Counted from the first letter of the stretch, positions 13,372-30,574 are shown. The stretch: 64,000 bases of DNA from Pseudomonadota bacterium (GCA_027488515.1 JAIYBN010000001.1:811-64810), one strand, 5' to 3'. The notes: a model not told the origin generated them from the sequence alone. Program-made: numbers and translations.

Positions 13372-16300
13372 ATGCGCAAAAATAAACTGATTCTTAGACT
13401 GCGGGAGTTTTTGCTCACCCTCGGCTTCATTGCTGGGGTGAGTGCGTGTGAATTTGTTCCCCAGGAAGTGTCGATCACGACGCTCACCGGGGCAGCAGCC
13501 GAAAGAGCGGACAACGCACCCTATGCGGGATTCACCGGGATCACCGAAGCGAATACCCTCAGCGCAAATAAAGTTCAAATCAAGTGGAGCGCATCCACTG
13601 ATGAGAAAGTGATCGCTTACAACATCTATGACTCGAGCAACTTCTTCTTTCCGAAACTCCTGAAAACCGTTCTCGCTCCCGCCAACAGCTTCACCTTGAC
13701 CGGCCTGACGACGGTCACCCTGGGCACTTTCCGGGTGAAGGCCGCCACCGCCAAGAACGTGGAAGATGACAACATGGTCGACAAGTTCGCCATCCCCTAT
13801 GGCGGGATCGCCTCGGCGACCGTGACTTCCTCCACCACAGCCACTGTCAATTTCGCAGACATCAGTAACGCCGATTCTGCCGGGGTCTATTGTAAATGGG
13901 GAACGGCGACGGATTTCACCCTGGTCAAGAGCATCACCAATACCGTGGGTGTGACCTCAGCAGATTTGACCGGCCTTCTTCCCGGATCCACCTATACCTG
14001 CCGGGTCAACACGACCATCGCCGATTTCACGGACAATAACACCCTAACGGTGAGCTTCATTCCGATCGGCCAAGCCACAAGATTGCAATTTGTCACCGAG
14101 CCGGGAAGTGCACCCGCGGGAACCGCCCTCGGACCTCAACCCGTCATTCGAATTCTTGATGACAACGACAATCTGGTTTCTTCCGGGCCCGACTCGACCG
14201 CTCTGATCACCCTGACCCTGTCTGCCTTGAGTCCCTCTGCAGGCACGATCCGTGGGACCGCGACTATCGCTGCAGTCGGTGGCGTGGCCACTTTCAGTGG
14301 AATCAACTTCCAGGAAGCCGGAGTGAAGATTTTGACCGCGACCAAACAAGACACTTCGAATCAGACCGGGGGTGCGCCCAGTTTGACCAAAGATTCGAGC
14401 GAATTCACTATTGTCCCAGCAGCGGTTTCGCCTTTGGCCTCGAAATTGACTCTCACGCCAGCCTCGGTTCCAGGCTCCTATCTCATTGCCAATGGTAACG
14501 CGAGTTACACAGTCGGATTCGAACTTGCTGACCAGTATCAGAACCCGATTTCAGGGGTGAAACCCCAGTTTGCTTCCACCAATTCGAACGACACCTTGAG
14601 CCAGCCCGTTGCCAACACAGATTCGGCCGGCCTGACCTCCGGGTCGATCTCCACGACTGTGGCGGGTACCCGGACTCTCAGCATCAGCTCTCCGTCCGGT
14701 TTGACCGCCGTGACCGCCTCGGCCACCTTTGTGGCCGGCGTGGCAACCAAAGTCGGCTTTGTGCAGCAACCCCTCAACTCTCCGGCAGGGGTGGCGACGA
14801 TGAACTCGGTCCAAGCAGCAGTGCTCGACATCCAAGGGAACGTGGTGATTACCTCCAGTGCGAACATTTCTCTCTCGATCTTCAATAACGTCAGTGGGGC
14901 CAATTTGACTGGAACGACCACGGTCCAAGCGGTGAACGGAGTCGCCACTTTCAACGGTCTCGGGATCGACCGGATCGGAACCTACAAGCTGATCGCAAAC
15001 TCCGCACCACTCACTGTCGCCTACAGTAATAACTTTCAGATCGTATCCGGAGCTCCGGCGAAACTCGCCCTCTCGGGTCCTTCAAGCTTCGTATCAGGTA
15101 ATTGCAGCAACGCTCTGGCTTTCACGCTTCAACTCCAGGACATCGGCAATAACGCCGCAAATGCCACAGCGAGCACCGTGATCCAATTGACCGGTACCGG
15201 TGGCGGAGGATTCTACACCAGCTGTGCGGGAACCACTCCCGTGACGAGCGTCACCTATTCCACCGGCTCGAACACCAAGACCCTGTATTTCAAAAACCAG
15301 AAAGCCGAGAGCTTGGTCCTCACTGCTCGTGACCCGTCGCTGATCATGGCGCAGGGCACTCACAATCTGACGGTGACTCCTTCCCAAGTTTCACTCACCG
15401 GCCCGACTTCCATCATCTCGGGTCGGTGTTCTCCTGCATTCACGATCACCACATTGGGCGCTGACGGGACCACGGGAAACGTCAAAGATGAAACCCCGTT
15501 CCAGATTTCGGGCACCCTGGGAAGCGCCACCTTCTGGGAAGACTCCGCCTGTACCAACTCCCCGGTCACCAATCTCTCCTCCTTCAAAGTGGCAGCAGGT
15601 CAAAGCACCAAGGCTTTCTATGTCAAGGACCCTCTCGCTGAAACCATCTCACTGACCATCTCCGATCCGGCGAATGTGATTTCACCGGCAACCGCTCCTG
15701 TGGTGGTGTTGGTCAACGCCTCACAAATCAATTTTGTCGGACCTACCGTGGTCATCTCGGGTCAACCATCGAGTCCTTATACAGTCACTTTGATGGACTC
15801 GCTTGGGAATCCCGTTCAAGCGCCACAAAACGTGACCCTGAACATCTCAGGATTGACGGGCACACAAGCGGCGTTCTACAGCAATCCGGCTGCCACGACT
15901 TTCCTCGGTTCGGCATTTTCCATTCCGCAAGGCGCTGCCAGCCAAATGATCTACCTGAAGGACATGACTGCAGAGTCCATCAGTGTCAAGGTGGTCGATC
16001 CGGCAGGAAACCTTGCTGATTCCGCAACGATTCAAATCAAAATCTCCCCGTCCGGCATGACACTGGCCGGACCGGTTCCAGCCAATTCCAAAACCAACAT
16101 TTGTGCCGGTCCGTTTACACTGAGAACCATCGATGGTGCGGGTAATGCAGCAGGAGCGGTCACACCGATCACCGCGGGTCTGACGGGTGCCGGATACGCC
16201 GGGAAATTCTTTAATGACAGTGCTTGCTCGAATGAAATCACACAAGTCAATTTCGCAGAAGGCGTGAGCACCCGGACTTTTTACTTCAGAGGACTTTATC

Positions 16301-19251
16301 CGGACAGCTCCTCATTCTTGGCTTCAGATTCCGCCTCTCCCCCCATTTTGACTCCAGCGCAACTGTCTTGGACGGTAAGCGCTTCGCCGGGCTGGATCGG
16401 TTCCGGTCTCGGTCGTGGGGCCGGTGGTACCGCAACCGAAACCGAGGGCTCCCCTATTCTTTGGCAAAGCGGTAAAACACCCGTCGTCGGACGGATCGAT
16501 GCTCCAACCGGCGTGAACGCACTCGCATTCGATCCCTCAAAACGTTATCTTTATGTGGCCGATGCCAACTACCATCGGGTGATCAAATACGATTATCAGA
16601 CCAATCAGTACATTGGTTGGCTCGGCATGCTCACCCGCTGGGGTGGAGTCGGTCCCACCGGAGCCAACACCTTTGCTCTCAGCAGCTCCATGGGATCCAC
16701 CGCAGCAGCCTCACTCGCCAACCAGTGCATCACATTAGCTCATAACTACATCACCCCCGGGTGGTGTCAGGGGGGTATGTCGGTGGCGACCGGCTCCATC
16801 ACTTCAGGAGGCATGCATTCACCAAACGCGGTCGCCAGTGATGGAAATTACGTCTATGTCTCAAACTCGAGCAATTACAACATCACCCGGTTCAATGCCA
16901 ATACCGGCCAGTTTACGGGATGGGTCGGGCGAATTGGGAACAACTCGGGCTTGAGCCCAGGGATTGACACTGAAGGCAACTCCCTGATGAATTGCTCCTC
17001 TTCGAATGCCAACAACTCCCCGACTCCGGGATGGTGTCGATGGGGGGGGCATAGCAATAGCTACATCCAGGTCGGAACCAGCCCTGGCTTGACCTACTCC
17101 ATGACCATCGCTACGGACCAAACCGGTGAAACGTATCTTTACACCGGGAACTACGGCATGGTTTCCAGAATCAACCTGAGCACCGGTGCATTCAGCGGAT
17201 GGATCGGATGGGTACAGCTGACTTCTACAGGAGCCCCGGTTGCTTCAACTTTGGCTTCGGCTCCCGGAGCCACCAACACTTGTGCCACCACTGCGGCCAA
17301 CAACCGGACTCCCGGCTGGTGTATCGGCGGTCAGAACTGGATGAACGGTGGAATCGGTGCCGGTGGTATGGGTGCTATGGGTGGCGTCTGGGCGGATGAA
17401 GCGAACAACATCCTCTATTCCTCGATGGGCAACAATGGCGGGACCATCTACAAACACAATCTCACCACCGGGGCCTATATTGGAAACGTGACCTTCAACA
17501 ACTCTCCGATGGCTTTCAACGGGATCGCCCACATCACCTTTGATGGGACGTACTTCTACATTGCCGACACGAACCGGATCGCCAAGGTAGACACCAACGG
17601 TACACTTTGGGGCTGGATCGGAAAAGTCAACACCACCGCTTCCTTGGCCAATGCATCGGGGAATCCGAGCGGAACCTGCTCGACTGTCGGGGTGAACTCG
17701 AACACCACCGGCTGGTGTATGGGCGGAACCGCCAAATTCGGGATTGATGAAACCTCATTCTTTGGCCTAGGTGCCATCGCCTACGATGGAGCGGACGGAA
17801 TCCTCGTCGGTCAAGGAACCAACTTTCCGGCGATCAAGAAATTCGACAAAACCACCGGGAACTACCAAGGGATGCTGGTCAACGTCGGAGACAGCCCGGC
17901 GACCTGGACCGACTCCCAAGCCATTGCAGGGTTGCACGGGTTCGATGACAACTCCATGTACGCGCCCTCCGGGTTGCACTTCGATGCGGGCTCCAACAAC
18001 CTCTATGCCACCGAGGTCTTGGCTGGTCGCGTAAAACAAATCGATGCCCGTACCGGAGCCACCACAGGGTGGGTGGGTGCCGTCGGCGGATTTGTGAGTG
18101 GAATCACCCGGACGCTCGGTTGCGGAACCAACTCGATCGGGGTCACCTCCGGCTGGTGTTTGGGGGCGATGTTCCATCCCTCATTCTTCACCGCAAACAG
18201 CTGGACTCTGGCTCCGACCAATGCGGGTGGATTCATGTACTACCCCGCCGGGGTCACCAGTGACGGGACCTTTTTATATGTGACCGACATCGGCTACAAC
18301 CGGATCAACCGCTTCCGGCTCAGTGATGGCGCCTACCGTGGCTGGATCGGAGGCATCAGCGGTACGGCCACGACTGGCCCGGCCACAGCATCGGATTCTG
18401 CGTCCTGTACGAATGCCGTGAACCGGTTCACCCCCGGTTGGTGTGTGGGCGGATTGCCTACTTCAGGCAACGGCAACGGATACCTGAACTCACCGAGTGC
18501 CATCACCTTTGCTTCTGGTAATTTGTATGTGATTGACCAGGCCAATCACCGGGTATCTTCCTACAACGCCAATACAGGTGCCTTCAACGGGTGGATCGGC
18601 CGGGTCAACAGTGGGACTGGAATCAGTCCTGCTACGGTTACGAAAAGCGGCTGGGTTCTGACCAATGGCTGGTCGACGGGGGGTAACTCCACCAACGGCA
18701 GTTGCGGAAGCGACCCGGGCGGTGGATTTTGCTTCAACAACGGGCGGGGGGGCATTGCCTCCGATGGCGTGAAGCTTTACGTGGCCAACACCCAGAACAG
18801 TCGTGTCGACATGTTCACTCTGGCCACGGGTGTGTATGAGAAGTCTTCCTATACCCACCCCGGTGTATACACCAACGTTTGGACCACGACTCCAAACTTC
18901 GGGAATAACCTGGGACCCGCCTCCCTTGCTTTCTCGAACGGGCACCTCTATTACACCGTCGTGAACGGAACCACCTTGGTGGGCAAAATGAATGCGACCA
19001 CCGGAACCGTTCTCGGTTGGCGGGGTGGGATCGGGACTTCGCCTGCGGGCCCGGTCTCCAGTCCGGATTGCGTCGGTGCAACCGGTGTGACTCCTGACTG
19101 GTGTCAAGGTGGAGGTGCCGTACAAGGCCTCCTTCTCGGGAACTCGAACAACATCGGTGGTTTTGCGGCCCCTTACGGAATCACAGTGGACAATCACTTT
19201 GTCTACATCAGTGACGAAAACTCTCACAGGATCACCAGGTATCCGAAATGA
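13372..19251 (+). CDS. Giant surface lipoprotein of 1959 aa. It has N-terminal FN3/bacterial Ig-like (Big) domains and a C-terminal beta-propeller built from about 8 NHL-like repeats. Each repeat carries a Cys-x(6-10)-TPGWC-xGG loop.
   Basis: Signal peptide plus lipobox (GVSAC). Ig-like motif (RLQFVTEPGSAPAGTALGPQPVIRILDDNDN). NHL-like repeats (YVADANYHRV, YVIDQANHRV, NGWIG). GAAGAGG RBS. Confidence 0.85.
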   Translation: MRKNKLILRLREFLLTLGFIAGVSACEFVPQEVSITTLTGAAAERADNAPYAGFTGITEANTLSANKVQIKWSASTDEKVIAYNIYDSSNFFFPKLLKTVLAPANSFTLTGLTTVTLGTFRVKAATAKNVEDDNMVDKFAIPYGGIASATVTSSTTATVNFADISNADSAGVYCKWGTATDFTLVKSITNTVGVTSADLTGLLPGSTYTCRVNTTIADFTDNNTLTVSFIPIGQATRLQFVTEPGSAPAGTALGPQPVIRILDDNDNLVSSGPDSTALITLTLSALSPSAGTIRGTATIAAVGGVATFSGINFQEAGVKILTATKQDTSNQTGGAPSLTKDSSEFTIVPAAVSPLASKLTLTPASVPGSYLIANGNASYTVGFELADQYQNPISGVKPQFASTNSNDTLSQPVANTDSAGLTSGSISTTVAGTRTLSISSPSGLTAVTASATFVAGVATKVGFVQQPLNSPAGVATMNSVQAAVLDIQGNVVITSSANISLSIFNNVSGANLTGTTTVQAVNGVATFNGLGIDRIGTYKLIANSAPLTVAYSNNFQIVSGAPAKLALSGPSSFVSGNCSNALAFTLQLQDIGNNAANATASTVIQLTGTGGGGFYTSCAGTTPVTSVTYSTGSNTKTLYFKNQKAESLVLTARDPSLIMAQGTHNLTVTPSQVSLTGPTSIISGRCSPAFTITTLGADGTTGNVKDETPFQISGTLGSATFWEDSACTNSPVTNLSSFKVAAGQSTKAFYVKDPLAETISLTISDPANVISPATAPVVVLVNASQINFVGPTVVISGQPSSPYTVTLMDSLGNPVQAPQNVTLNISGLTGTQAAFYSNPAATTFLGSAFSIPQGAASQMIYLKDMTAESISVKVVDPAGNLADSATIQIKISPSGMTLAGPVPANSKTNICAGPFTLRTIDGAGNAAGAVTPITAGLTGAGYAGKFFNDSACSNEITQVNFAEGVSTRTFYFRGLYPDSSSFLASDSASPPILTPAQLSWTVSASPGWIGSGLGRGAGGTATETEGSPILWQSGKTPVVGRIDAPTGVNALAFDPSKRYLYVADANYHRVIKYDYQTNQYIGWLGMLTRWGGVGPTGANTFALSSSMGSTAAASLANQCITLAHNYITPGWCQGGMSVATGSITSGGMHSPNAVASDGNYVYVSNSSNYNITRFNANTGQFTGWVGRIGNNSGLSPGIDTEGNSLMNCSSSNANNSPTPGWCRWGGHSNSYIQVGTSPGLTYSMTIATDQTGETYLYTGNYGMVSRINLSTGAFSGWIGWVQLTSTGAPVASTLASAPGATNTCATTAANNRTPGWCIGGQNWMNGGIGAGGMGAMGGVWADEANNILYSSMGNNGGTIYKHNLTTGAYIGNVTFNNSPMAFNGIAHITFDGTYFYIADTNRIAKVDTNGTLWGWIGKVNTTASLANASGNPSGTCSTVGVNSNTTGWCMGGTAKFGIDETSFFGLGAIAYDGADGILVGQGTNFPAIKKFDKTTGNYQGMLVNVGDSPATWTDSQAIAGLHGFDDNSMYAPSGLHFDAGSNNLYATEVLAGRVKQIDARTGATTGWVGAVGGFVSGITRTLGCGTNSIGVTSGWCLGAMFHPSFFTANSWTLAPTNAGGFMYYPAGVTSDGTFLYVTDIGYNRINRFRLSDGAYRGWIGGISGTATTGPATASDSASCTNAVNRFTPGWCVGGLPTSGNGNGYLNSPSAITFASGNLYVIDQANHRVSSYNANTGAFNGWIGRVNSGTGISPATVTKSGWVLTNGWSTGGNSTNGSCGSDPGGGFCFNNGRGGIASDGVKLYVANTQNSRVDMFTLATGVYEKSSYTHPGVYTNVWTTTPNFGNNLGPASLAFSNGHLYYTVVNGTTLVGKMNATTGTVLGWRGGIGTSPAGPVSSPDCVGATGVTPDWCQGGGAVQGLLLGNSNNIGGFAAPYGITVDNHFVYISDENSHRITRYPK

Positions 19252-22200
19252 TGTTGAGTGGGGGTAAGCAAATTCTGATTTTGGCCCTGACTCTTCTGGC
19301 AGGGTGCAGATTCGGTGGAAAAGTCACCTACGACGGAACTCCGTACCGTGAGTACAAGGAGACTCCGATCGTGGAACAGCCGACCGTGGTGAGCCCGACG
19401 GGAAACCCGCACTATTCCCGCTCGAGCCTCTTCAGCATCGAGGGGTTTTGCATGGTCGGAGATACCCTCAAACTCGAAGGTGCCGACACTCAAGAAACCG
19501 TATGTCAGCCCGATTCGAGTTATCAGTTCACGATCCTCAAGACATCGGATGGTGTGTACCCCTTCCAGATCACCCAACTGGACCTGAACGGGAACGCTTC
19601 GATTTCCAGTCCTGTCGTATGGATCAGAAAAACCAGTGTGACTGCACCCACCATCACGAGCCCCGCAGTGAATCCATTTTTATCGGCTGGTGCATCACTG
19701 ACTCTTTCGGGGGCATGTGAGACCGGGTCATTCGTTTCACTCGGCGGTGATGGAGCTGGTTCGACCGAGTGCTTGAACTCTGCATACTCATTGAATTTGC
19801 CAAAAGCATCGGATGGTGACTACACCATCCGGGTAGTTGCTGCGGATCCGGCTGGAAATTCAGCCGAAACCTCGATCGAATGGAGGAAACACGCTCTTGA
19901 GGTTTCTCCCGCTTCCGTATCCATCCGGGTGGACACCCCGCAGGCTTTCACCATCACCGGAGGATCCGGATCTTACACCATGGCCCTGAGTGAGAATCTC
20001 TCGGGTGGAACCCTGAATCAGTCGACGCGAACTTATACCACCGGTAGAACGGCATATGTCACCGATAGCTTGACCGTGACCGACTCTCTCGGTGTCAGCC
20101 AATCCATCGGAATCACTACTTTAGCGGGGGACCCGGACCACATTGAAATTGTGAGCGGAGATGATCAGACCGTGCCTGTCGGCACCGTTTTTCCACAACC
20201 GCTGGTGGCCAAGTTGGCTGACCCCTACGGAAACGGCATTCCTTCCTACCCACTGGTGGTGGTTCGGACTTCGGGTGATGCCATCCTTTCAGGAAGCTCC
20301 ATCCGGATCACTGATGCCTCAGGGAACATCACTCTTCCCGCAACCATGGGGTATTCCTCACTTCGAAGCACTTTCCGAGTCTCTCCTCTTTCCGGATCCC
20401 TTCCCGATCTTGCAGGCAGTGGCGGAACCACCGTTTCATTCAAAGCTCGATCCTCCACATTGGGAACATCGTTATTTGGATCCGCATTCATGGCGGGGAA
20501 CACTCCCGTCTCAATGGTGGTGGCCAAGTTTGTCGACAGTGGTTTCGGTGACATCGCTGTTCTGAACCAAGCCGAAAACACAGTTGGAATTCTCATCGGG
20601 CGCGGGAACGGCCTTTTCGGAAAAATGAAAACCTACGGGCTGGGAGCCTGTTCCGGAGGAGTGAAAGCCGTATCAGGCGACTTGAACGAGGACGGACATG
20701 TCGATTTGGCGGTGGTCTGTAACGGATCCGGTCAGATTTCTCGTTTGCTCGGAAACGGCGATGGCACCTTTGCCATCGCTCAAGTGATGAACACGGTGGC
20801 AGTACCCTCTGGCTTGGTGCTGGCGGACTTGAACGGAGATTCCCATCTTGACCTCGCCACTGCATCGATGCAAGACAATGTGGCAGCAGTTCACTATGGC
20901 ACGGGAACCGGTGCGTTCGGATCGGCCCAAGAGTTCACAGTGGGGACCACCCCGGTGGCTCTGACCGTCATCGACTGGAATGAAGATGGCTTGAAAGACT
21001 TGGCTTTGGCTCACTCGGCAACCGGGAATGTCGGAGTTTTGTTCCGCAAAGCGGATGGAAGGTATGGAGACTTCACTGAAGGGTACTCCGGATCAGGACT
21101 GAACTCCATCACGACAGCCGATGCGGACGCCGACGGTCATCCTGACCTGATCACCACCAATTCCGTCGACACCAATCTGATCATCTTTTACGGTGACGGT
21201 CTTGGAAATCTCACCACGACCAGCAGCTTGACCACCGGCCTGTCTCCGAGCTCGGTGGTTGTGACCGATCTTGATCGTGACGGCAGAAAAGACCTGGTGG
21301 TGTCGAATACTGACGATATGAACCTCGGGACTTTCTATGGGGTGGGCACACGCCAGTTCAGTTTGCCTAAACTCGATTCGGTCAACGGGAGTCCGGTTTC
21401 TCTGGTGGTCTACGACTCAAACAGCGACACCGTCCCCGACATCTCTTTTGTGGATGTGGCAAACTCCACCGTCCGGGTACTTTCAGGCAACCCTCTGGGA
21501 CAGCTTGATTTTGTCAATCCAGTGGGGAATTCTCCCGCCCATCTGACATCCGGTGATTTTGATTCGGACGGATTTCGTGACGTGGTGGTGGTCAACCAAG
21601 GGTCCAATTCGCTCACCGTCTTCAAGGGCCTGGGGAACGGACATTTGACACTGAAATCGACGATCTCCACCGGCACCCAGCCAGTTTGGGTCGAAAGTGA
21701 GGATTTGAACCGCGACGGAAAATTGGACCTGGTCGTAGTGAACAAAGGGGGGAATTCGGCGGGGGTATTCATCGGAAAGGGCGACCTGACCTTCGAAATC
21801 ATGGTTCCCTACGGTACCGGTGACAATCCGTCCGGGGTGACCGTCGGAGATTTCAACCGGGATGGTCATTTGGATCTGGCCACCTCCAACCAGACCACAT
21901 CGAAGATCAGCCTCCTGACGGGAAATGGTGACGGGACCTTCAATCTCAAAGTCGACTCACTGACCGGCAGCGCTCCTGCGGGAATCGTTTCTGCAGACTT
22001 CAACGGAGACGGACTTCCGGATCTGGCCACCGTGAATTACTCTGACAGCTCGGTGAGTATCTTGATGGCGAACCCGGATGCAAGCTTTCGTGCTCCCGTC
22101 AATTATGCGACGGGTGGACTCCCGACGGGAATGGTCAGTGGATACTTCAACAGTGATCTATTGGTAGACTTGGCTGTGACGAACTTCGGAGACGGGACGA

Positions 22201-22520
22201 TCAGTGTCTTACACGGGGTTTCGGACGGATCGTTCTCAGCTCAAGTGGTTTACTCCGTGGATGCCAGCCCTGGAATTTTATTCGCCGGGGATTGGAACGG
22301 CAAAGGCCGGACCGACCTCATGGTTGCTCTCAACACCCAGAACGCTTTCGCATTCCTTCCCAGTATGGCCGGAGGGCAGTTCAATAACAGCTCGGAAATC
22401 TTCAACCAGGCTGGAGCGATTTCTGCGGTTTCGGGAACCGATCTCAATGGAGACGGGAAACTGGACGTTCTGGTGATCGATGGAACCAACAGCCTCTTGC
22501 AGGTGAGGCTCGGCCACTGA
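19248..22520 (+). CDS. Giant lipoprotein of 1090 aa, with N-terminal Ig-like domains and a C-terminal FG-GAP/VCBS (integrin-alpha-like) beta-propeller repeat array.
   Basis: The ATGA start/stop overlap with the upstream gene indicates translational coupling. Lipobox LAGC. More than 10 repeats of FG...DLNGDGHLDLA type. Confidence 0.85.
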   Translation: MMLSGGKQILILALTLLAGCRFGGKVTYDGTPYREYKETPIVEQPTVVSPTGNPHYSRSSLFSIEGFCMVGDTLKLEGADTQETVCQPDSSYQFTILKTSDGVYPFQITQLDLNGNASISSPVVWIRKTSVTAPTITSPAVNPFLSAGASLTLSGACETGSFVSLGGDGAGSTECLNSAYSLNLPKASDGDYTIRVVAADPAGNSAETSIEWRKHALEVSPASVSIRVDTPQAFTITGGSGSYTMALSENLSGGTLNQSTRTYTTGRTAYVTDSLTVTDSLGVSQSIGITTLAGDPDHIEIVSGDDQTVPVGTVFPQPLVAKLADPYGNGIPSYPLVVVRTSGDAILSGSSIRITDASGNITLPATMGYSSLRSTFRVSPLSGSLPDLAGSGGTTVSFKARSSTLGTSLFGSAFMAGNTPVSMVVAKFVDSGFGDIAVLNQAENTVGILIGRGNGLFGKMKTYGLGACSGGVKAVSGDLNEDGHVDLAVVCNGSGQISRLLGNGDGTFAIAQVMNTVAVPSGLVLADLNGDSHLDLATASMQDNVAAVHYGTGTGAFGSAQEFTVGTTPVALTVIDWNEDGLKDLALAHSATGNVGVLFRKADGRYGDFTEGYSGSGLNSITTADADADGHPDLITTNSVDTNLIIFYGDGLGNLTTTSSLTTGLSPSSVVVTDLDRDGRKDLVVSNTDDMNLGTFYGVGTRQFSLPKLDSVNGSPVSLVVYDSNSDTVPDISFVDVANSTVRVLSGNPLGQLDFVNPVGNSPAHLTSGDFDSDGFRDVVVVNQGSNSLTVFKGLGNGHLTLKSTISTGTQPVWVESEDLNRDGKLDLVVVNKGGNSAGVFIGKGDLTFEIMVPYGTGDNPSGVTVGDFNRDGHLDLATSNQTTSKISLLTGNGDGTFNLKVDSLTGSAPAGIVSADFNGDGLPDLATVNYSDSSVSILMANPDASFRAPVNYATGGLPTGMVSGYFNSDLLVDLAVTNFGDGTISVLHGVSDGSFSAQVVYSVDASPGILFAGDWNGKGRTDLMVALNTQNAFAFLPSMAGGQFNNSSEIFNQAGAISAVSGTDLNGDGKLDVLVIDGTNSLLQVRLGH

Positions 22521-22619: not shown

Positions 22620-25600
22620 ATGTTTTGGGCGACTGTTTCAACAGGTTGGGGGGGATGCCTGAGAGTGGTTTTACCGCTCTTGTTGGTGGCTCTTTCTGCA
22701 TGTTCGATCGATGTCCCACTCAATGATGTCCGGGTCAAAGGGATCACTTTCACTTCACTCGAGGAATTGTCCTACAACTCCAGCCAAGCCTCGATCCGGA
22801 TCCGGGGAAACAATTACTTCCCTGACTCAAATCCCCTGACCACGATTCGCTTTCATTCGGATTCGATCTGCAGTTCAAGTCCCCTCGGAGAAGGCCCCGT
22901 CCGGACCTTCATCGATCCGGGAATCACAGCAGAAGTGTCGAGTACGCAAAAGACCGAGATTTGGGCATCGAACCATACGAATGACAAATGTGTTTACGTC
23001 ACCACCTATGACCCCCTTCATACGGCTCCTCCGGCGCCGCTCTTTCTCTCCTTTGATCCGGCTCCGCCTTCGACAGTGGTCTCTGCTCCGAGAATCTTCG
23101 GTGAGGTATCCGGCAATACCGTGAGTGTCAGCCTTTACGATGATTCGACCTGTGGTCACCTCATCGCTACTGGAAGCTCAGATGAGTTCACCACGGTCGG
23201 GATCGGACTGACTCTTGGTCCCGATCGTGAAACTGAAGTTTATGGAAGGTCCTTCGAACCGTTTGGAAACGGTTCAGCATGCGTGTTTCTGGGAGCGTAT
23301 TCACACGACTCTTCTGCCATCGGCGGGCCTGAACTCACCAGCGTACTCCCGGTTTCCCCCAATCGGACATCCACAACACCTCGCCTGTCCGGTAATCTTC
23401 CTGATGGCGGAACCCAAATCAAATTCTATTCTGATGCGGGATGCAAGGTCGAGATCAACTCCGGCACTTCGGAGGAGTTTTCGACTGCAGGGATCCTCCT
23501 CACGGTCGCTGAGAACCAGAAGCTCGGCGTATGGGCAAAAAATCTGGACGGGGACGGCCACTCCTCTTTTTGCACCTACTTGACCACCTACCAACACGAC
23601 AACCTCCCGCCGACTGCACCGGTGTTCACTTCCACCATTCCCGTTTCTCCGAGCGGTACGACCCTCTACCCCAAAGTGATAGGATCGATTGCCGCGGATG
23701 CGACTCAAGTCAGATTCTATAATAATCGGGCGTGTACTGTCGGAATCGGCTCAGGTACCCGCGCTGCCTACATCTCCACCGGGATTCCGGTCAGCGTGAC
23801 CGAGAACGACACCACGGTAATTTACGGTGCTTCGGTCGATGCTGCGGGCAATGCATCGAATTGCGTGGAATTGGCCTTCTTCGTTTCCGATACCATTCCT
23901 CCGGACCCACCGGTTTACGCCGGGACCGATCCGACTTCACCGACAAATAAAAGCTTCACTCCCAAAATCGAAGGGGGCGTTTCGGCTGATACCGAGACTG
24001 TCTCCCTCTTTTCAGACATATCCTGCCAGAGCCAAATCGGAACCGGACCTGCAACAGACTTCATTGCGGCGGGAATTCAGGTCACGGCAGGGAACAACGT
24101 TCCAACAACGATCTATGCGAAGTCCTACGACTTGGTTGGAAATGGAACCGAGTGCACCTACCTGACCACCTATGATCACTCCACCGCCATCCCACCTGCT
24201 CCCGTGTACCAGACCGCAAATCCGGTCACTCCGACCAATGTGACCAACAAGCCCTTTTTGATTGGCTCTCTTTCTCCGATCATCACGCAGGTACAACTGT
24301 TTGCCGATGCTGCTTGCACGACCATGATCGGAGCAGGAACCGCGAAAAACTTCAAATCGACCGGGATCGGAATCACCGTGGCGATGAATGCCGTGACTCC
24401 GGTTTATTCAAAAGCTCTCGACAAATACGGAAATGAATCGGAGTGTACGTTCTTCGTCAATTACACTCATACGAACATCATCCCTTCGCCACCGGTCTTC
24501 CAGTCCTACTCCCCTACCCCTCCTACGCGAATCAGCTCCACTCCAATGATCAAAGGCACGGCTCCCACCAATCCGGTCGCGATCATTCCGAGTTCCCGTC
24601 TGGTGTTTTACGACAGCCAATTCTGTGTGAACCGGATCGGTCTCGGGAGCGTTGCCGACTTTCAAGGAGGCGGAATCCAGGTCAATGCTGGGGTGAATGC
24701 GATCACTAACATCCATGCTCGGGCCTTCGATGACGCCGGAAACGGCAGTCCCTGCACCAACATGTCCCCCTACACCCATGACATCCTCTTGCCGGGTCGC
24801 CCGATTTTCCTGTCCTCTTCTCCCGGAAGCCCGTCTTACAACCGGCAAGCATTGGTCAGGGGTTACCTGGGTCCGACAAGTGACTTCCTGTCTGCTTCAA
24901 CGGTCACCCTGTTTTCGGATGAGGCTTGTACCCAGCAAATCGGCCACGGTCCAGTCGGTCTGTTCACGACCACAGGAGTCGAGGCTACCATGCTTTTCAA
25001 CACCACCACCATGGTTTACGGGTTCACGACGAACATTGTCGGGTCTGACTCCATTTGTTCGTACTTGACCAACTTCCTACACGCCCCCGAGGGTGGGAGT
25101 GAGCTGATGGCAAGTGCACTCATGAACGGCTCGGTGATTCTGTCCTGGCTTCCTGACTTCGTGGCCAATCCCGCACCGGATTATCATGTGAAGCGGTCGA
25201 CTCGCCCTGGCGGACCTTATTCCACGATCCAGATCACCAAATCTGCCAACTTCAAAGATGTCTACACCACGAATGGTGAAACTTACTACTACATCATTGA
25301 ATCGATCAACTCGACCGGAAAGAGCGTGTACTCCAACGAGGCAAACGCCCAAGCGCTCACTTCAAGACCGATCGCACCCACCTCAATCAGCGCCACTCCC
25401 GGCTCAGGGAAGGTATCCCTCGATTGGCAAGCGGACATCAAGGATTTGACCTATACCGTCCTGCGATCCTTCACATCTGGGGGTCCTTACCAAGTGCTCG
25501 CATCCCAGTTGAACACCACTTCTTACGTGGATGACACCGCTCCCAATGATCAGGCGGTCTACTACGTTGTCAAGGCAGTCAATCCGGCGGGTGTCAGTCC

Positions 25601-28600
25601 GGCATCCCCCGAAGCTTCGGCCATGGCCAAGGACCAGCCACCCGCTCCGACACGCCTGACTGCAGCTTGGGCGATCGGTGCATGCGGATACGGAACGACC
25701 GGTGTGATGTTGACCTGGAGTGCCCCGGCGTACCAGAGCGGATTCTTTGTGAACTTTGCTACCACCAGTGGCGCGACACAGAGGATTGCGCGGGTCACTG
25801 GTACCTCCTACCTTTCATGTATGCCGACTTGGGGTGGGAATGTCGATCCGAACTACCCCTTACCCCCTGACTATGAAGAATACTATACGGTAGCGGCAGA
25901 CTGGGGAGGTTACCCGGGAGCCCAATCGAACGAAGTGGTCCTGAACCATGTCATGCCCACCTTGAGCCTCACACCCGGAAATAATGAAATCGTAGTAGAC
26001 TGGACACCGGCCGGGAACGCACCTTCTTACATTCTCAGACGTGCTCTTTCGCCGAATGGACCGTGGACCGTCATTGGCAATATTTCGGGGAGCTACTACC
26101 TCGACTCCTCTGTCACCAACGGAACGGCTTACTACTACACGGTGGAGCCGGTATACGTTGCGGGAACCCAGTACGGGATCATTTCCACATATGCATCAGC
26201 CATCCCCGGTCCGAATCCGGGTGCTCCCACCAATCCAAAGCTGATCATTGCTAACAATCGCGCCTATTTGCGCTGGACCGCACCCACTCATTATGCAGGG
26301 TTCAATGTCTATTCAGCATCGGCACCGGGTGGCCCTTGGACCTTGCGGTACACTTCTCCAATCAACGAATGGCAAGACCTGGTCCCGCAATTCGGCATGA
26401 ATTACTATCGGGTCACAACACGTTGGGGCGAAAGCTATGAATCGGCCCCGACGGCGACTCTTTCATTCCGAAACGGGGTGACCACCACGATCAATGCGAC
26501 TGCCAATGCCACAGCTGTCACAGTGACTTGGAACTCCGTGATCGGGGCATCGAAGTACATTTTGAAGCGAAGCACCACTTCGAGAGGGCCGTACACGGTC
26601 ATCTCGAGCAATGCGGCCAGCCCCTATACAGACTTGGCCGTCATCGCAGACACCGCCTACTACTACGTGGTGGCCGCCGAGTTTGCTGACACTACCCAAG
26701 GACAAGATTCAGCCGAAACCAGTGCCATGCCTGGAAACGGTAAAGTCCCTACAGGCTTGACGGTCACCTCGGTCGGCTCGAACACCGTGAACTTGACTTG
26801 GGGTCGGGTCACCGGGGCGAGTGGCTATCGGGTTTACTGGGGTCTGACCAATAACGGACCCTATGACCAAATCCCACTCATGAGTTCGGTCAACTCGATC
26901 TCTATTCCGAGCTTGAATGCGGACACAACCTACTACTTCAAGGTCACTTCATTTTCTCCGGGAGAGTCGACTCGATCCGCACAAATTGCCGCAACCACCC
27001 GGAACACACCATCCGCTCCCTTGGTGGTAGCCGGAAACAACTCAGTGAAGGTGGACTGGGGCGGAGTGAGCGGGGTATCGGGTTACAATGTTCAGCGATC
27101 CACCGACGGGACTACTTTCACCACGATCGCATCGAACCTCTCGACCTTTACTTTGACTGATACAGGACTCACGAACGGACAGATTTATTTTTACCGGATT
27201 ATCGCGGTATTCTCGAACGGTTCCCAGACCTCTCCCACCAGCACATCAGTGACTCCGGGCGTGGTCCCGCGGGTCCCGGCTGGATTGGCAGTCGTCGGGA
27301 ACTCGAACGGTACCGAAATCACGCTCACGTGGGCGCCGGTCCCGGGAGCAACCAGTTATGGAATCTACACCTACCAAGGAGGCACCTACACCTCCTACGG
27401 GTCCAGCACCAACAACTCCGAGCAGCTCTTCGGGCAGGTGGAAGGGACTCCCATTTCATTTGCAGTGACCGCACTCAACGGGACGAACGAGTCCGGCTAT
27501 TCTTCCGTGGTGACAGTGGTCCCCTCGAACTCGGGCACTGCTCCAACGGCGATCATGTCTGGTAGTGCTGTACAAATCACCTGGTCGAGTGATCCGTACG
27601 CATCCGCATACACCCTGGAGCGTTCCGAAGATTCCATCAACTTCCAAGCGATCGCTACAGGGATCGCCACACTGTCCCATACTGACAGCGCAGTCATTTC
27701 GGGCCAGGCATATTTTTACCGCTACAGACCGGAATATACGGGAGGGCACATCGGAGCACCCTCGGCGACGAGCGCCCCTGTGACCCCGGGCAATTCCCTG
27801 CTGACTCCGGCAAACCTCGTGGCGAAAGCCAGCGATGTGGCCCAGGTCTCGCTACAATGGGTTCAATCTCCCAATGCTGTATCCTACAGCGTTTACCGGA
27901 GTGGCACAGCTGGCGGGCCCTATGTATTCAAGGCATCAGTGACAGCGCCGGATACATTCTATGTGGACAACACCGTCATCCCTGGATCGGCGTACTATTA
28001 TGTGGTCACTTCTGTGAATGATTCCGGGGTCAATTCTCCGTACTCCAATGAATCTGGAGTCGACTTCACAGTGAGTGTTCCTTCAGGCCTGGCAGCCAAT
28101 CCGGCCAATGGGACCACCCAGTTGAGTTGGAATCCCGCCGGAGGGGCCAACCAGTATTATCTATACCGCTCTCTTGAAGAGACCGGATCTTATTCACTGA
28201 TCTATTCAGGGGCATCCACCAGCTTCATTGATCCGGACATCACTCATGGAGTCGACTACTACTACAAGGTGGCGGCTAGGTTCTCAGGCGCGGGCACTTC
28301 TCATACCTCGGCAGCCGTCATGGCGACCGGGATCGCGACCTTGGACCTCGTAGTGCCGATCGAACTCACCGATCAACCCTTGGCGTCGGACGTGAATGAA
28401 GTGACTTTCGAGAGTACTCAAACCAGCTTCGACCCGGACGACTATGACGGAAGCAGAACCTATTCTCTTGAAACAGTGGCCATGAATCTGGACTCGACCG
28501 ATCGGAGTCTCAAGTGGGTGGATTCGAACGGAAGTGAAGTGGGTGAAGTGGTCATCACTGCCGGCACGACCGCTCCTACCCTGTTCCGGAACACCATCAC

Positions 28601-29528
28601 GATCCCGTCGGGTCTGACAGCATATCGACTCAGGTCCCAGGGAACTACTGAGCCTGCACAGCTTCAAGTGATGAGTGCACGGCTGATGGTGAAGCAAGTC
28701 GGAGCGACGCGGACGAAGCTGTACTTCCCACTCCTTTCCAAGTCTTCAACCCCGTCCTCATCTGATTCCTTGAATCCATTGCATGGCACCATGAGTACGG
28801 ACTACTCGACTCTTCCTTCAGCACAACGATTTACCAGACACCTTTCCGCTCAATCCACCCTTGGAGAGTTCAACAGCTGGGAGCTGGAAGCAGTTGTTTC
28901 TGCCCAACAAGACGCTATCGGCAGCTTTGCTCTCAGAAATTTGAGCCAGAATGCATTGGTCGAAGACTCCCAGACCTACTTCAAATCCGACACCGTCACG
29001 CTCTCGAGAGTGCCGATCTCGGACGGACTCGAAAACTTCTCCACTGCCAATGAGGACAATCAGTATGACCTTGTTGTCCGATGCGACCGTAATTGCACGA
29101 ACTCGGTACAGATCTTCAAAGCAGGCCTGTGGCTGAAGGTGCTCAACCTTTCCCAGGTAGAGGTCGTTCAACGACTCACCCTAGGCGCGTCCTATCCTGA
29201 AGGGGCTCCGGTCTTGACTGATTCGCGTGCAGTGGTTGACCTGAGTGGATATTCGAATCCATCTTTCGGACTGAATGTAACCGCCTCCACTCCGATGATG
29301 ACGATCTTGGATGTTTTGTTGTCCTCCTCGGGCACTTCGAACTCATCCACGAGCGGCCTGAACCCGGTCCCAGGATCGACTCTTTCGTTCGGATTACCGG
29401 ACATGACGACACAGGCTACGCCGATGAATTTGAGCCTCACGAACGGAGATCGCCTCGTGGTGGAAGTGAGTGGGCAGGCGGGGGCTGTGGTGCGGGAGGC
29501 GGGGCTGGTGATTCGTGCACACCGCTAA
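22620..29528 (+). CDS. Giant lipoprotein of 2302 aa. It contains about 8 tandem ~100-aa two-Cys Ig-like repeats, then about 11 fibronectin type III domains, then a ~400-aa C-terminal domain.
   Basis: Lipobox LSAC. Recurring C.YLTTY.HD..(L/I)PP.PV(F/Y) repeat boundaries. FN3 signatures (YYYVV, GVS.YS, W..V.GA..Y). Confidence 0.85.
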   Translation: MFWATVSTGWGGCLRVVLPLLLVALSACSIDVPLNDVRVKGITFTSLEELSYNSSQASIRIRGNNYFPDSNPLTTIRFHSDSICSSSPLGEGPVRTFIDPGITAEVSSTQKTEIWASNHTNDKCVYVTTYDPLHTAPPAPLFLSFDPAPPSTVVSAPRIFGEVSGNTVSVSLYDDSTCGHLIATGSSDEFTTVGIGLTLGPDRETEVYGRSFEPFGNGSACVFLGAYSHDSSAIGGPELTSVLPVSPNRTSTTPRLSGNLPDGGTQIKFYSDAGCKVEINSGTSEEFSTAGILLTVAENQKLGVWAKNLDGDGHSSFCTYLTTYQHDNLPPTAPVFTSTIPVSPSGTTLYPKVIGSIAADATQVRFYNNRACTVGIGSGTRAAYISTGIPVSVTENDTTVIYGASVDAAGNASNCVELAFFVSDTIPPDPPVYAGTDPTSPTNKSFTPKIEGGVSADTETVSLFSDISCQSQIGTGPATDFIAAGIQVTAGNNVPTTIYAKSYDLVGNGTECTYLTTYDHSTAIPPAPVYQTANPVTPTNVTNKPFLIGSLSPIITQVQLFADAACTTMIGAGTAKNFKSTGIGITVAMNAVTPVYSKALDKYGNESECTFFVNYTHTNIIPSPPVFQSYSPTPPTRISSTPMIKGTAPTNPVAIIPSSRLVFYDSQFCVNRIGLGSVADFQGGGIQVNAGVNAITNIHARAFDDAGNGSPCTNMSPYTHDILLPGRPIFLSSSPGSPSYNRQALVRGYLGPTSDFLSASTVTLFSDEACTQQIGHGPVGLFTTTGVEATMLFNTTTMVYGFTTNIVGSDSICSYLTNFLHAPEGGSELMASALMNGSVILSWLPDFVANPAPDYHVKRSTRPGGPYSTIQITKSANFKDVYTTNGETYYYIIESINSTGKSVYSNEANAQALTSRPIAPTSISATPGSGKVSLDWQADIKDLTYTVLRSFTSGGPYQVLASQLNTTSYVDDTAPNDQAVYYVVKAVNPAGVSPASPEASAMAKDQPPAPTRLTAAWAIGACGYGTTGVMLTWSAPAYQSGFFVNFATTSGATQRIARVTGTSYLSCMPTWGGNVDPNYPLPPDYEEYYTVAADWGGYPGAQSNEVVLNHVMPTLSLTPGNNEIVVDWTPAGNAPSYILRRALSPNGPWTVIGNISGSYYLDSSVTNGTAYYYTVEPVYVAGTQYGIISTYASAIPGPNPGAPTNPKLIIANNRAYLRWTAPTHYAGFNVYSASAPGGPWTLRYTSPINEWQDLVPQFGMNYYRVTTRWGESYESAPTATLSFRNGVTTTINATANATAVTVTWNSVIGASKYILKRSTTSRGPYTVISSNAASPYTDLAVIADTAYYYVVAAEFADTTQGQDSAETSAMPGNGKVPTGLTVTSVGSNTVNLTWGRVTGASGYRVYWGLTNNGPYDQIPLMSSVNSISIPSLNADTTYYFKVTSFSPGESTRSAQIAATTRNTPSAPLVVAGNNSVKVDWGGVSGVSGYNVQRSTDGTTFTTIASNLSTFTLTDTGLTNGQIYFYRIIAVFSNGSQTSPTSTSVTPGVVPRVPAGLAVVGNSNGTEITLTWAPVPGATSYGIYTYQGGTYTSYGSSTNNSEQLFGQVEGTPISFAVTALNGTNESGYSSVVTVVPSNSGTAPTAIMSGSAVQITWSSDPYASAYTLERSEDSINFQAIATGIATLSHTDSAVISGQAYFYRYRPEYTGGHIGAPSATSAPVTPGNSLLTPANLVAKASDVAQVSLQWVQSPNAVSYSVYRSGTAGGPYVFKASVTAPDTFYVDNTVIPGSAYYYVVTSVNDSGVNSPYSNESGVDFTVSVPSGLAANPANGTTQLSWNPAGGANQYYLYRSLEETGSYSLIYSGASTSFIDPDITHGVDYYYKVAARFSGAGTSHTSAAVMATGIATLDLVVPIELTDQPLASDVNEVTFESTQTSFDPDDYDGSRTYSLETVAMNLDSTDRSLKWVDSNGSEVGEVVITAGTTAPTLFRNTITIPSGLTAYRLRSQGTTEPAQLQVMSARLMVKQVGATRTKLYFPLLSKSSTPSSSDSLNPLHGTMSTDYSTLPSAQRFTRHLSAQSTLGEFNSWELEAVVSAQQDAIGSFALRNLSQNALVEDSQTYFKSDTVTLSRVPISDGLENFSTANEDNQYDLVVRCDRNCTNSVQIFKAGLWLKVLNLSQVEVVQRLTLGASYPEGAPVLTDSRAVVDLSGYSNPSFGLNVTASTPMMTILDVLLSSSGTSNSSTSGLNPVPGSTLSFGLPDMTTQATPMNLSLTNGDRLVVEVSGQAGAVVREAGLVIRAHR
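22990..25210 (+). repeat. Intragenic tandem repeat array: about 8 repeats of ~300 bp, each encoding a ~100-aa two-Cys domain.
   Basis: Periodic recurrence of (S/T)xC(T/V)(Y/F)L(T/G)(T/A)Y.H and PP(A/S/D)P(V/L)(F/Y) motifs in the translation. Confidence 0.7.
25210..28300 (+). repeat. Intragenic tandem array of about 11 FN3-encoding units, each ~270-300 bp.
   Basis: Recurring YYY(V/K)V, GxSxxS and LxWxxV motifs at roughly 90-100 aa spacing. Confidence 0.65.
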
Positions 29529-29530
29529 CC

Positions 29531-30574
29531 CCCCTAACTGTCCCCTTTGACTTCACCTGAAATACTGTCAAGATCGGATCAATACCGTATTGTGGTAGCG
29601 CAGGTAAATATACAGGTGATCTATCAGTCCCTCAGGCTTCTTGGTCGTGCACCAGGTGCGTCGAAAAAGCCGATTGAGATTCGCTCTCAGCATCGCGCAG
29701 GTATGGTTGAGCGCAAAAAGCGGATCAAAGACGAGTTTCTTCAACTCTCCCTGCCCCGTGATTGCACCCCGAGCACCCGGGTGAGCGATGTGATCCACAT
29801 TCTTCAGGTGTCTTTTGATGAACCTCGGGTAATGTGGATTCTGATCAGACTCAAGAATTGATCCGGAATGCACCACGGGTTTCAGTGTCCTGAACAGGAG
29901 ATCCCAGCCATTCGGGCGCTCGTCTTTGCGGTACCCGTACTTACGTCTTGAAATCTCGGCAAGCTTTCCCCTGGCAGGCATCCGCGAAACCTGAAAGCCC
30001 AGTATTTCTCGGGTGTTTTTGCTTACAGCTAAAGATACGCTCAAGGGTTTGCACTTGGTGTGTTCAAAGGTCTCTAAGTCATCAAACTGGATCTCTGAGA
30101 TTGGGGTACCTGCGAGTTCAATCAGTCTACTTTCATGCTCAGCCTTCGCTCGTGCTGCTACCATTCGAAATTTTCGTACAATCGTCTTTGGATTGACCCG
30201 AAGGAGAATCGCCATCCGTCGCTGACTCACTCCGGATGAGAACAGTTGCGCGACCACATGATTGAGGTCGCGCTTTTTCTGTCGATAGTCGGGGGAATGG
30301 GTACTTGCCGAGAAGTGGCGCCCACAATTTTTACAATGATACTTTGTGATGAACCGCCGGTCACGTGTCCGGTAGAAGGAGCCTTTCCGGACGATGAGTC
30401 TTGATCCAGGACTCGACTTTCCACCTGGATTTAGGAGGGAGGGCTGACGATCGCAATTGGGGTTCGGACAGCGTCTTTTCATGACCCAAGCAAAGGCAAG
30501 TCAAAGGCCAATGAGCGCAGGGTCTTGGAATCTTCAGCTGGACCGGAAAGGGAAGCATAAGGGGGCAGTTGGGG
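29531..30574 (-). mobile_element. Insertion sequence of about 1.04 kb (IS1595-family-like or IS1-like) with imperfect terminal inverted repeats.
   Basis: The left end 29531..29547 (cccctaactgtcccctt) and the right end 30559..30574 (reverse complement ccccaactgccccctt) match at 15 of 17 positions with 1 gap. A single transposase ORF lies inside. Confidence 0.7.
29568..30482 (-). CDS. IS transposase with an N-terminal zinc ribbon and a DDE domain, IS1595-like or IS1-like.
   Basis: N-terminal C2C2 motif (CPNPNC...CKNCGRHF), followed by an acidic-residue-containing catalytic region (FDDLETFEH..., ILESDQNPHY). 304 aa. Confidence 0.75.
   Translation of the reverse strand: MKRRCPNPNCDRQPSLLNPGGKSSPGSRLIVRKGSFYRTRDRRFITKYHCKNCGRHFSASTHSPDYRQKKRDLNHVVAQLFSSGVSQRRMAILLRVNPKTIVRKFRMVAARAKAEHESRLIELAGTPISEIQFDDLETFEHTKCKPLSVSLAVSKNTREILGFQVSRMPARGKLAEISRRKYGYRKDERPNGWDLLFRTLKPVVHSGSILESDQNPHYPRFIKRHLKNVDHIAHPGARGAITGQGELKKLVFDPLFALNHTCAMLRANLNRLFRRTWCTTKKPEGLIDHLYIYLRYHNTVLIRS

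Follow-up and report, generated by a model that had tools for sequence, protein, structure and literature searches.

The window analysed here, a stretch of 64,000 nucleotides (nt) from a Pseudomonadota bacterium (GCA_027488515.1, JAIYBN010000001.1:811-64810), carries on its + strand a gene for a giant lipoprotein, G3, preceded by the genes of two further giant lipoproteins, G1 and G2. From its N- to its C-terminus, G3 is composed of a lipobox, eight repeats with two Cys residues each, 12 FN3 domains and a C-terminal region of 397 amino acids (aa), as derived from the sequence and from profiles. The conservation of both this whole architecture and the G1-G2-G3 block across metagenome-assembled genomes of the Bdellovibrionota is new. 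The model of a triple jelly-roll head specific to the G3 family, predicted with confidence, is new as well. The immunoglobulin-like (Ig-like) family to which profiles assign the repeat is known, while its two-Cys branch appears to be unmodelled. Taken alone, the architecture and the repeat family assignment can be held with high confidence. The features of G3 are listed below; the two-Cys repeats were delimited by their Cys pairs, the unit profile and the consensus, and the head and its modules by structure models made with AlphaFold2 (AF2), in the case of the entire head together with Foldseek and hhalign.

22620..29528, + strand: G3, complete open reading frame (stop codon included) of a 2,302-aa giant lipoprotein, supported by the reading frame, full-length orthologues and 12 genomic loci
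22620..22703, + strand: signal peptide with lipobox L-S-A-C (LVALSAC), from the sequence and its conservation in orthologues
22743..23036, + strand: two-Cys Ig-like repeat 1, the most divergent copy (aa 42-139; Cys84/Cys124)
23037..23327, + strand: two-Cys Ig-like repeat 2 (aa 140-236; Cys178/221)
23328..23618, + strand: two-Cys Ig-like repeat 3 (aa 237-333; Cys275/318)
23619..23909, + strand: two-Cys Ig-like repeat 4 (aa 334-430; Cys372/415)
23910..24200, + strand: two-Cys Ig-like repeat 5, the modelled copy (aa 431-527; Cys469/512; also AF2)
24201..24491, + strand: two-Cys Ig-like repeat 6 (aa 528-624; Cys566/609)
24492..24800, + strand: two-Cys Ig-like repeat 7 (aa 625-727; Cys669/712)
24801..25094, + strand: two-Cys Ig-like repeat 8 (aa 728-825; Cys770/813)
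25095..28334, + strand: 12 FN3-type domains, from internal jackhmmer and Pfam fn3
28335..29525, + strand: C-terminal head, three tandem jelly-roll-like beta modules (aa 1906-2302, 397 aa)
28335-28709, + strand: head module M1 (to aa 2030)
28710-29147, + strand: head module M2 (aa 2031-2176), with an invariant CxxxC at 2155/2159
29148-29525, + strand: head module M3 (aa 2177-2302), the most variable one

The N-terminus of G3, MFWATVSTGWGGCLRVVLPLLLVALSAC, shows a hydrophobic stretch followed by a canonical lipobox and satisfies the lipoprotein pattern (N-terminal hydrophobic region, then [LVI][ASTVI][GAS]C). G3 is a predicted substrate of signal peptidase II (SPII), with a Sec/SPII signal in which the predicted lipidated residue is Cys28 (codon 22701-22703) and the +2 residue is Ser. 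Ten orthologues align end to end with G3 at 32-39% identity. Cys28 and all 16 Cys of the repeats are invariant in 11 aligned orthologues, and so is the CxxxC motif at 2155/2159. The lipobox was also found in the N-termini of 11 further orthologues; every N-terminus inspected had one. G3 is a real protein, predicted to be lipid-anchored, of uncultured Bdellovibrio-like bacteria. A preliminary description of this DNA had called it a third giant lipoprotein, in agreement with the lipoboxes that we also find in G1 and G2. A Pfam scan of the whole protein at E<=1 returned only fn3, GH85_C and Ig_J_second.

The 16 Cys residues that come next after Cys28 form eight pairs (84/124, 178/221, 275/318, 372/415, 469/512, 566/609, 669/712 and 770/813), with a distance of 43 aa between the two Cys of a repeat (40 in repeat 1). 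The repeat period is 94-103 aa and the units, joined by Pro-rich linkers, are 97-103 aa long. Searched with a profile made from the units, G3 yields exactly eight domains (E 6e-28 to 1e-39 each), which are 17-38% identical to each other at the aa level; repeat 7 has a 6-aa insertion that is retained in the orthologues. The preliminary description had anticipated about eight copies of a ~100-aa two-Cys repeat, and the motif that it gave agrees with our computed consensus. It was also right that the Cys spacing is conserved, but its value of about 45 aa was slightly too large, and its start at 22990 falls within repeat 1, as the array begins at 22743.

The occurrence of the Cys pair was surveyed in 1,554 repeat instances from the best 150 proteins, the window protein and P0003-P0006. 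Both Cys were present in 1,479 instances, one in 42 and neither in 2, in a set that is biased toward Cys-containing matches, the query profile itself containing the Cys. The first Cys follows the strand V-x-L-Y-S-D, and the second lies before the last strand, after D-x-x-G-N-x-S. In Ig-like folds the two loops concerned (BC and FG) are located at the same end of the domain, and a staple from loop to loop would thus be geometrically plausible. The near-absence of single-Cys copies, despite the bias of the set, is what a disulfide predicts. These observations suggest that the Ig-like domains of the repeats are probably braced by a disulfide that would link the Cys following strand B to the one ahead of the last strand.

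The preliminary description regarded the repeat as unrecognised, and this is true for direct searches, since neither Pfam, NCBIfam nor PHROGs recognises it. Pfam scans of seven single repeats gave no match to a Big family at E<=10, and the window repeats remained below the Pfam gathering thresholds of Big_6 (PF17936) and Big_13 (PF19077). Profile-profile comparison, on the other hand, links the repeat to Big_6/Big_13-type repeats at 99% probability. A word-indexed protein search with the repeat region retrieved two relatives. The first, P0001, is a 1,128-aa lipoprotein with nine two-Cys repeats; it is the nearest non-orthologous relative, and its genomic context has no neighbours in common with the G3 locus. 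The second, P0002, is a fragment; its repeats reach 178.6 bits for Big_6 (8 stretches) and 71.7 bits for Big_13 in Pfam, and they also score on the NCBIfam models Ca_tandemer (NF033510) and OmpL47-type domain (NF047446). In hhalign, the window-type repeats (A1) matched the P0002 repeats (A2) with a probability of 99.4% (E 5e-21) over 94 of 97 columns, in register and with both Cys aligned. When only the eight window repeats were used, they matched at full length the repeats of P0017 (99.2%, E 2e-19), a protein scoring 363 bits on Pfam Big_6 over 13 stretches, and the P0002 repeats at 98.8%. Based on these in-register matches to Big_6/Big_13-positive repeats, we conclude that the G3 unit is, by profile comparison, a divergent two-Cys branch of the Big_6/Big_13-type bacterial Ig-like domain and no new fold class. 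The preliminary description would have abandoned its view of the repeat for a confident match to a common Big family with nothing distinctive; the hhalign match of 99.2% goes most of the way in that direction, and the Cys pair stands as a distinctive feature of the subfamily.

The Big_6/Big_13, Ca_tandemer and OmpL47-type domains resemble the G3 repeat in their length of ~95 aa, their tandem arrangement and their Pro-rich linkers. These domains and the G3 repeat also have a common order of motifs (P-x-SP...TP-x-I-x-G, V-x-L-Y, T-x-I-Y-A-x-A-x-D-x-A-G-N-x-S and Y-x-x-D-x-x-x-P). The G3 repeats differ in that they are not reached directly by any of these models and in their near-invariant Cys pair 43 residues apart, which, to our knowledge, typical Big_6 members of Gram-positive surface proteins do not have.

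When 1.84 billion representative proteins were searched exhaustively with the profile, 2,551 relatives emerged at E<=0.001 and 486 at E<=1e-30, which contradicts the idea of a rare repeat family. The two-Cys family ranges from strongly Big_6-positive members (P0017, P0037, P0076, P0002) to those invisible to Pfam (the window protein, P0008, P0010), and its named members are mostly annotated as 'hypothetical protein' in metagenome-assembled genomes of Bdellovibrionales or Halobacteriovoraceae. The word-indexed search undercounts homologues, with 2 for the repeat region and 4 for the head compared to the 2,551 relatives and ~55 orthologues of the exhaustive search; low-complexity, Ser/Thr-rich repeat proteins saturate its prefilter of 8,000 candidates.

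The AF2 model of repeat 5 is beta-rich, with a predicted local distance difference test (pLDDT) score of 85 (>90 in the core). Its best Foldseek matches in the PDB are Ig/FN3-like sandwiches (CD2, CEACAM, the Fn3-like domain of CbhA, and D00-D0 of intimin), all weak, with E >= 0.13 and template modelling (TM) scores of 0.4-0.5, and a sequence-profile search of the PDB with the repeat gave chance-level matches only. That the repeat might be an SCPU domain (PF05229, spore coat protein U / Csu-type pilin) was also considered and rejected, as the window matches are partial and below threshold: with a cut-off of 22.4 bits, repeats 2 and 6 (23037-23327 and 24201-24491) reach 13.5 and 15.9, over positions 75-121 of 138. 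P0001 and P0008 sum to 63-65 bits on this profile, with the two-Cys repeats covering about positions 62-125 of 138. The partial SCPU matches may come from a common Cys-containing beta-hairpin motif or from chance.

The preliminary description further saw a ~300-bp periodicity in the DNA, prone to copy-number variation and assembly collapse; our results refute this instability. With a minimum score of 30, Tandem Repeats Finder detected no array whose period is near 300 bp; all it reported were three short arrays, of about two copies each and with periods of 7-12 nt. Nor did a seed-and-extend search reveal repeats of unit length, the longest repeated stretches being 33-35 nt at 62-77% identity. 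An exact match extends over at most 11 nt between two-Cys units and 12 nt between FN3 units, at a mean nucleotide identity of 44% and 37%, respectively, which is far too little for homologous recombination or assembly collapse. Eight repeats occur at the same positions in 43 full-length orthologue cluster representatives (2,250-2,400 aa), as well as in an 85%-identical relative, and seven were detected at the same threshold in five further proteins of orthologue length (2,281-2,324 aa). The repeat of the same index was the best match in 60% of 14,448 comparisons, versus 12.5% by chance. In the matrix of window versus orthologue repeats, the diagonal was the row maximum throughout, tied with one other cell for repeat 6. 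The repeats of G3 are ancient, individually conserved and stable, and they do not form a recombination-prone array.

The repeats are followed by an array of FN3 domains, seen as such in the preliminary description, which counted about 11 of them. An internal iterative jackhmmer profile resolves 12 within aa 822-1905 (E 7e-11 to 6e-39 each), at aa 826-914, 915-1005, 1009-1106, 1109-1195, 1196-1282, 1284-1370, 1371-1462, 1463-1547, 1548-1634, 1635-1721, 1723-1814 and 1817-1905. We based FN3 membership on the Pfam gathering threshold and on tandem ~90-aa units with W...Y-x-V/R...Y-Y-Y-x-V; G3 scores 40.5 bits on Pfam fn3 (PF00041) against a cut-off of 25. The third domain (25644-25937, aa 1009-1106) is aberrant, with a Cys pair of its own (1022/1067) and a long insertion before the last strands, both of which are mostly retained in the orthologues.

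The C-terminal region (aa 1906-2302) had been described as ~400 aa without a nameable motif, and its 397 aa indeed gave no match in Pfam, NCBIfam or PHROGs. It was present in 55 gathered sequences, always at the extreme C-terminus and in G3 orthologues only. The AF2 model of this head, made from 29 sequences, has a pLDDT of 93.7 and a predicted TM score (pTM) of 0.92, and is all-beta with three groups of about eight strands. The high pTM implies that the three modules pack into one body, and in the model their individual jelly-roll-like character is secure. Comparison of the modules by hhalign (probability 86% for M1-M2 and 79% for M1-M3, M2-M3 not significant) lends weak support to an ancient triplication of one module.

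The best Foldseek match of the head in the PDB is a single-chain recombinant C1q head (5hkj, E 3e-10). Other matches are full-length Cry1A-type protoxins, the Cbln1 C1q trimer, the triple jelly roll of Sulfolobus turreted icosahedral virus (STIV, 4ind), the single-chain APRIL-BAFF-BAFF (4zch), and domains of Cry/Vip toxins resembling carbohydrate-binding modules. Among viral models, Foldseek returned ~400-aa phage and giant-virus proteins (one annotated 'C1q domain-containing') and minor tail proteins. The top matches, to single-chain C1q and TNF-family trimers, have E-values of 3e-10 to 1e-6 and a probability of 1.0, but TM-scores of only 0.23-0.25. Likewise, 5hkj, 4zch and 4ind have three jelly-roll modules in ~400 residues as the G3 head does (Foldseek E 3e-10 to 2e-7, probability 0.99-1.0), but with TM-scores of 0.18-0.25, an unmatched mutual arrangement of the modules and no sequence similarity; moreover, 5hkj and 4zch are engineered fusions rather than natural single chains. 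The sequence does not place the head in C1q/TNF either, with no Pfam match and a best E-value of 2.9 (chance level) when PDB sequences were searched with a profile of 29 heads. The models thus point to a local resemblance only between the G3 head and single-chain C1q/TNF heads.

The three modules are not equally conserved among the orthologues: M1 ranks highest, with 39% identity and 12 invariant columns in 126, and M3 lowest, with 25% identity and 1 invariant column in 126. Such variability of M3 would be the expected pattern if the distal module sets ligand specificity. The invariant CxxxC (aa 2155-2159, 29082-29096) is located between two long predicted strands of M2 and is probably a disulfide that closes the hairpin, a metal site being the alternative.

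G3 belongs to a conserved block of three genes. We scanned related loci using one genome per species and recovered 12, of which 11 are from metagenome-assembled genomes labelled Bdellovibrionales, Bdellovibrionaceae, Bacteriovoracaceae or Oligoflexia; the twelfth (L005) is the 85%-identical relative, labelled only 'Proteobacteria bacterium'. The source names of the orthologues also include Pseudobdellovibrionaceae and Pseudobdellovibrio sp. The other members of the block and the two genes that accompany it are the following.

13372..19251, + strand: G1, a 1,959-aa lipoprotein with lipobox VSAC (IAGVSAC) and FN3, Big_1 and NHL/SGL-type propeller matches
19248..22520, + strand: G2, a 1,090-aa lipoprotein with lipobox LAGC (LLAGC), PKD/Big_13 matches and an FG-GAP propeller
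30575-31213, - strand: o30575, 212 aa, with a signal peptide and the C-terminus YFQF
31185-32996, - strand: o31185, 603 aa, with a signal peptide and one central membrane helix

The order G1-G2-G3 is kept in every related locus with sufficient upstream sequence. Seven loci (L005-L009, L012 and L016) have both G1 and G2 ahead of G3, L013 contains G2 and the 3' end of G1, and L015 contains the 3' end of G2, which gives nine loci with G2 in this place. The block proteins are 31-45% identical across the related loci (84-93% in one close relative), and they are annotated as 'hypothetical' or 'FN3 domain-containing'. G1 and G2 overlap by 4 nt and G3 begins 99 nt past the G2 stop codon. Neither a promoter-like site on the + strand nor a convincing terminator was found between the block genes; with the tight spacing, this is compatible with one operon but does not prove it. 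The open reading frames of o30575 and o31185, which overlap by 29 nt, adjoin G3 in 9 of the 12 loci, in either orientation, while L013 has only o31185. Neither has a family match. From its sequence features, o30575 looks like a small outer-membrane beta-barrel, and whether the pair is part of the G1-G3 system is uncertain. For G2, the hit-locus protein Bd0109 was considered as a possible FG-GAP relative, and this lead was dropped when the paper checked was found to contain neither 'FG-GAP', 'propeller' nor 'integrin'.

Several other genes were observed around the block. Between G3 and the conserved neighbours, a 304-aa open reading frame (29568-30482, - strand) weakly resembles IS1-family transposases (41 bits; the cut-off is 100) and, among the related loci, is matched only in the 85%-identical L005 and not in the more distant ones. 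A LysM-domain protein and two proteins without family match lie divergently upstream of G1 (11022-12206, 9932-11038 and 12203-13189, all - strand), and homologues occur within 10 kb of the block in several loci, in shuffled order. An overlapping MotA/MotB-like stator pair (7113-7913 and 7910-8650, + strand) does not come near the equivalog cut-off of any named flagellar stator family. L006 and L007 also have MotA within 10 kb of the block, at a different position. We considered this pair (7113-8650) as a motor that energises the system and rejected it, as it looks like an ordinary flagellar stator and the position of MotA is not conserved in its two loci.

Considering its architecture and the models, we propose with moderate confidence that G3 is a monomeric, lipid-anchored 'beads-on-a-string' envelope protein of a Bdellovibrionota bacterium that acts as a long-reach surface adhesin, this role being the most likely one. 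In this scheme, G3 would be lipidated at Cys28 and sorted to the outer membrane (+2 Ser), and the periplasmic oxidation system would make the disulfide staple in each of the eight Ig-like domains. The 20 stalk domains would hold the head ~70-80 nm from the lipid anchor, assuming ~3.5-4 nm per domain. The head could then bind a ligand, possibly a glycan on prey or substrate, as the TNF/C1q-like tips of other Bdellovibrio fibres bind sugars, and G3 would work jointly with two co-conserved lipoproteins, G1 with its NHL propellers and G2 with its FG-GAP propeller. The partner domains (FG-GAP, NHL, PKD, Big_1 and FN3) are typical extracellular interaction modules.

Several observations weigh against this proposal. 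The lipobox indicates lipidation only, and outer-membrane lipoproteins may also face the periplasm. The model of repeat 5 has no PDB match better than E 0.13 in Foldseek, and the proposed disulfide is based on the co-occurrence of the Cys and on the general geometry of Ig folds. The TM-scores of the head in Foldseek are only 0.16-0.27, too low to demonstrate a C1q/TNF-like pseudo-trimeric packing. A literature search, within the library used, found no paper on this family. In addition, the head is not hypervariable, being 30-39% identical among orthologues like the rest of G3, and such an even, moderate divergence is more readily reconciled with a conserved ligand or a structural role than with recognition specific to the prey.

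This last point bears on the possibility that G1-G3 form a structural envelope or coat, i.e., a surface layer, a spacer or a sheath-associated scaffold, with the head docking on G1, G2 or another self component. Besides the similar, moderate rate at which all G3 regions evolve, the strictly co-conserved gene order would suit the subunits of one assembly, and the block is accompanied by o30575, a putative outer-membrane barrel, and o31185, a membrane protein. However, M3 is clearly more variable than M1, as expected for a distal specificity surface, and a jelly-roll head on a tandem Ig/FN3 stalk is the usual build of an adhesin. We consider a coat unlikely, while giving it real weight.

The adhesin proposal also requires G3 to be exposed, and a lipobox with +2 Ser predicts only Lol-type delivery to the outer membrane. 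G3 might instead be an outer-membrane lipoprotein that faces the periplasm, lying along the inner face or reaching the peptidoglycan, with its jelly rolls as carbohydrate-binding modules for the bacterium's own wall. No export factor for surface lipoproteins was identified nearby, and the LysM protein is found close by in several loci. However, a stalk of 20 beta-sandwich domains, ~70-80 nm when extended, would far exceed the width of the periplasm, combinations of FN3, FG-GAP, NHL and PKD are typical of extracellular proteins, and the LysM gene does not keep a constant place relative to the block, which makes a periplasmic location improbable. Finally, the view of the preliminary description that this is a new repeat with an unstable ~300-bp DNA periodicity, whose count of eight might be an artefact, can draw on single repeats having no direct Pfam match and on a ~291-nt period that is real at the protein level, but it is very improbable given the assignment to Big_6/Big_13-type repeats by hhalign, the lack of a Tandem Repeats Finder period near 300 nt, the short exact matches at 44% identity, and the eight same-position, positionally orthologous repeats in both the 85%-identical relative and the 43 distant orthologue clusters.

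For the proposed adhesin, the closest analogues in mode of action are probably the LigA and LigB proteins of Leptospira. These lipoproteins have 12-13 tandem Big_2 domains, and LigB has a C-terminal non-repeat domain. As G3, they combine a lipobox anchor, a long stalk of diverged tandem Ig-like repeats and a distinct C-terminal domain. Unlike them, G3 has no Big_2 match, while the Lig proteins belong to another phylum and have neither an FN3 array nor a triple jelly-roll head; the comparison gave no evidence of common descent. Giant adhesins of the type I secretion system (T1SS)/RTX group (LapA, SiiE, the Marinomonas ice-binding adhesin and Bap/Blp) likewise hold their ligand-binding modules away from the cell on a megadalton-class rod of tandem Ig-like domains. 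They are type I secreted, have no lipobox and are stiffened by Ca2+, and their repeats are usually near-identical and repetitive in the DNA, whereas G3 has a lipobox and repeats of 17-38% aa identity (44% nucleotide) with no DNA repeats. Neither Pfam nor NCBIfam gave a Ca_tandemer or RTX match in G3 that would place it in the T1SS/RTX (Ca_tandemer) type.

Within the phylum, the closest functional precedent for G3 would be the mosaic adhesive trimer (MAT) family. The MAT fibres of Bdellovibrio bacteriovorus are surface-displayed homotrimers with diversified tips (Caulton et al. 2024, PMC10769870). Two of their tips, Bd2439 and Bd2734, are trimeric TNF/C1q-like jelly rolls, of which Bd2439 binds N-acetylglucosamine (GlcNAc), and the term 'lipoprotein' is absent from the paper describing them (PMC10769870). 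Both MAT fibres and G3 are long and fibre-like and occur in predators of the same phylum, and the best fold matches of the G3 head are C1q/TNF heads. Set against the published description, G3 differs in being a single chain with a lipobox, Ig/FN3 beads and three non-identical jelly rolls per chain, and in being conserved rather than mosaic. A bolder version of the adhesin proposal would see in the head a natural single-chain, pseudo-trimeric C1q/TNF-like lectin, derived by module triplication and placed on a ~75-nm monomeric, disulfide-stapled, lipid-anchored stalk, which with G1 and G2 forms an undescribed contact apparatus with which Bdellovibrionota seize their prey; we regard this version as rather doubtful.

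These results have implications beyond this locus. The current Big_6/Big_13 models miss a large number of repeat proteins, 2,551 representatives at E<=0.001, a gap that a dedicated two-Cys model would close. For quality control of assemblies, periodicity at the protein level alone is no predictor of instability at the DNA level. How Bdellovibrio-like predators recognise and hold their prey is still largely open, the only characterised adhesins being the trimeric MAT fibres (PMC10769870). The G1-G3 locus offers a second, architecturally different adhesin candidate in this predator lineage.

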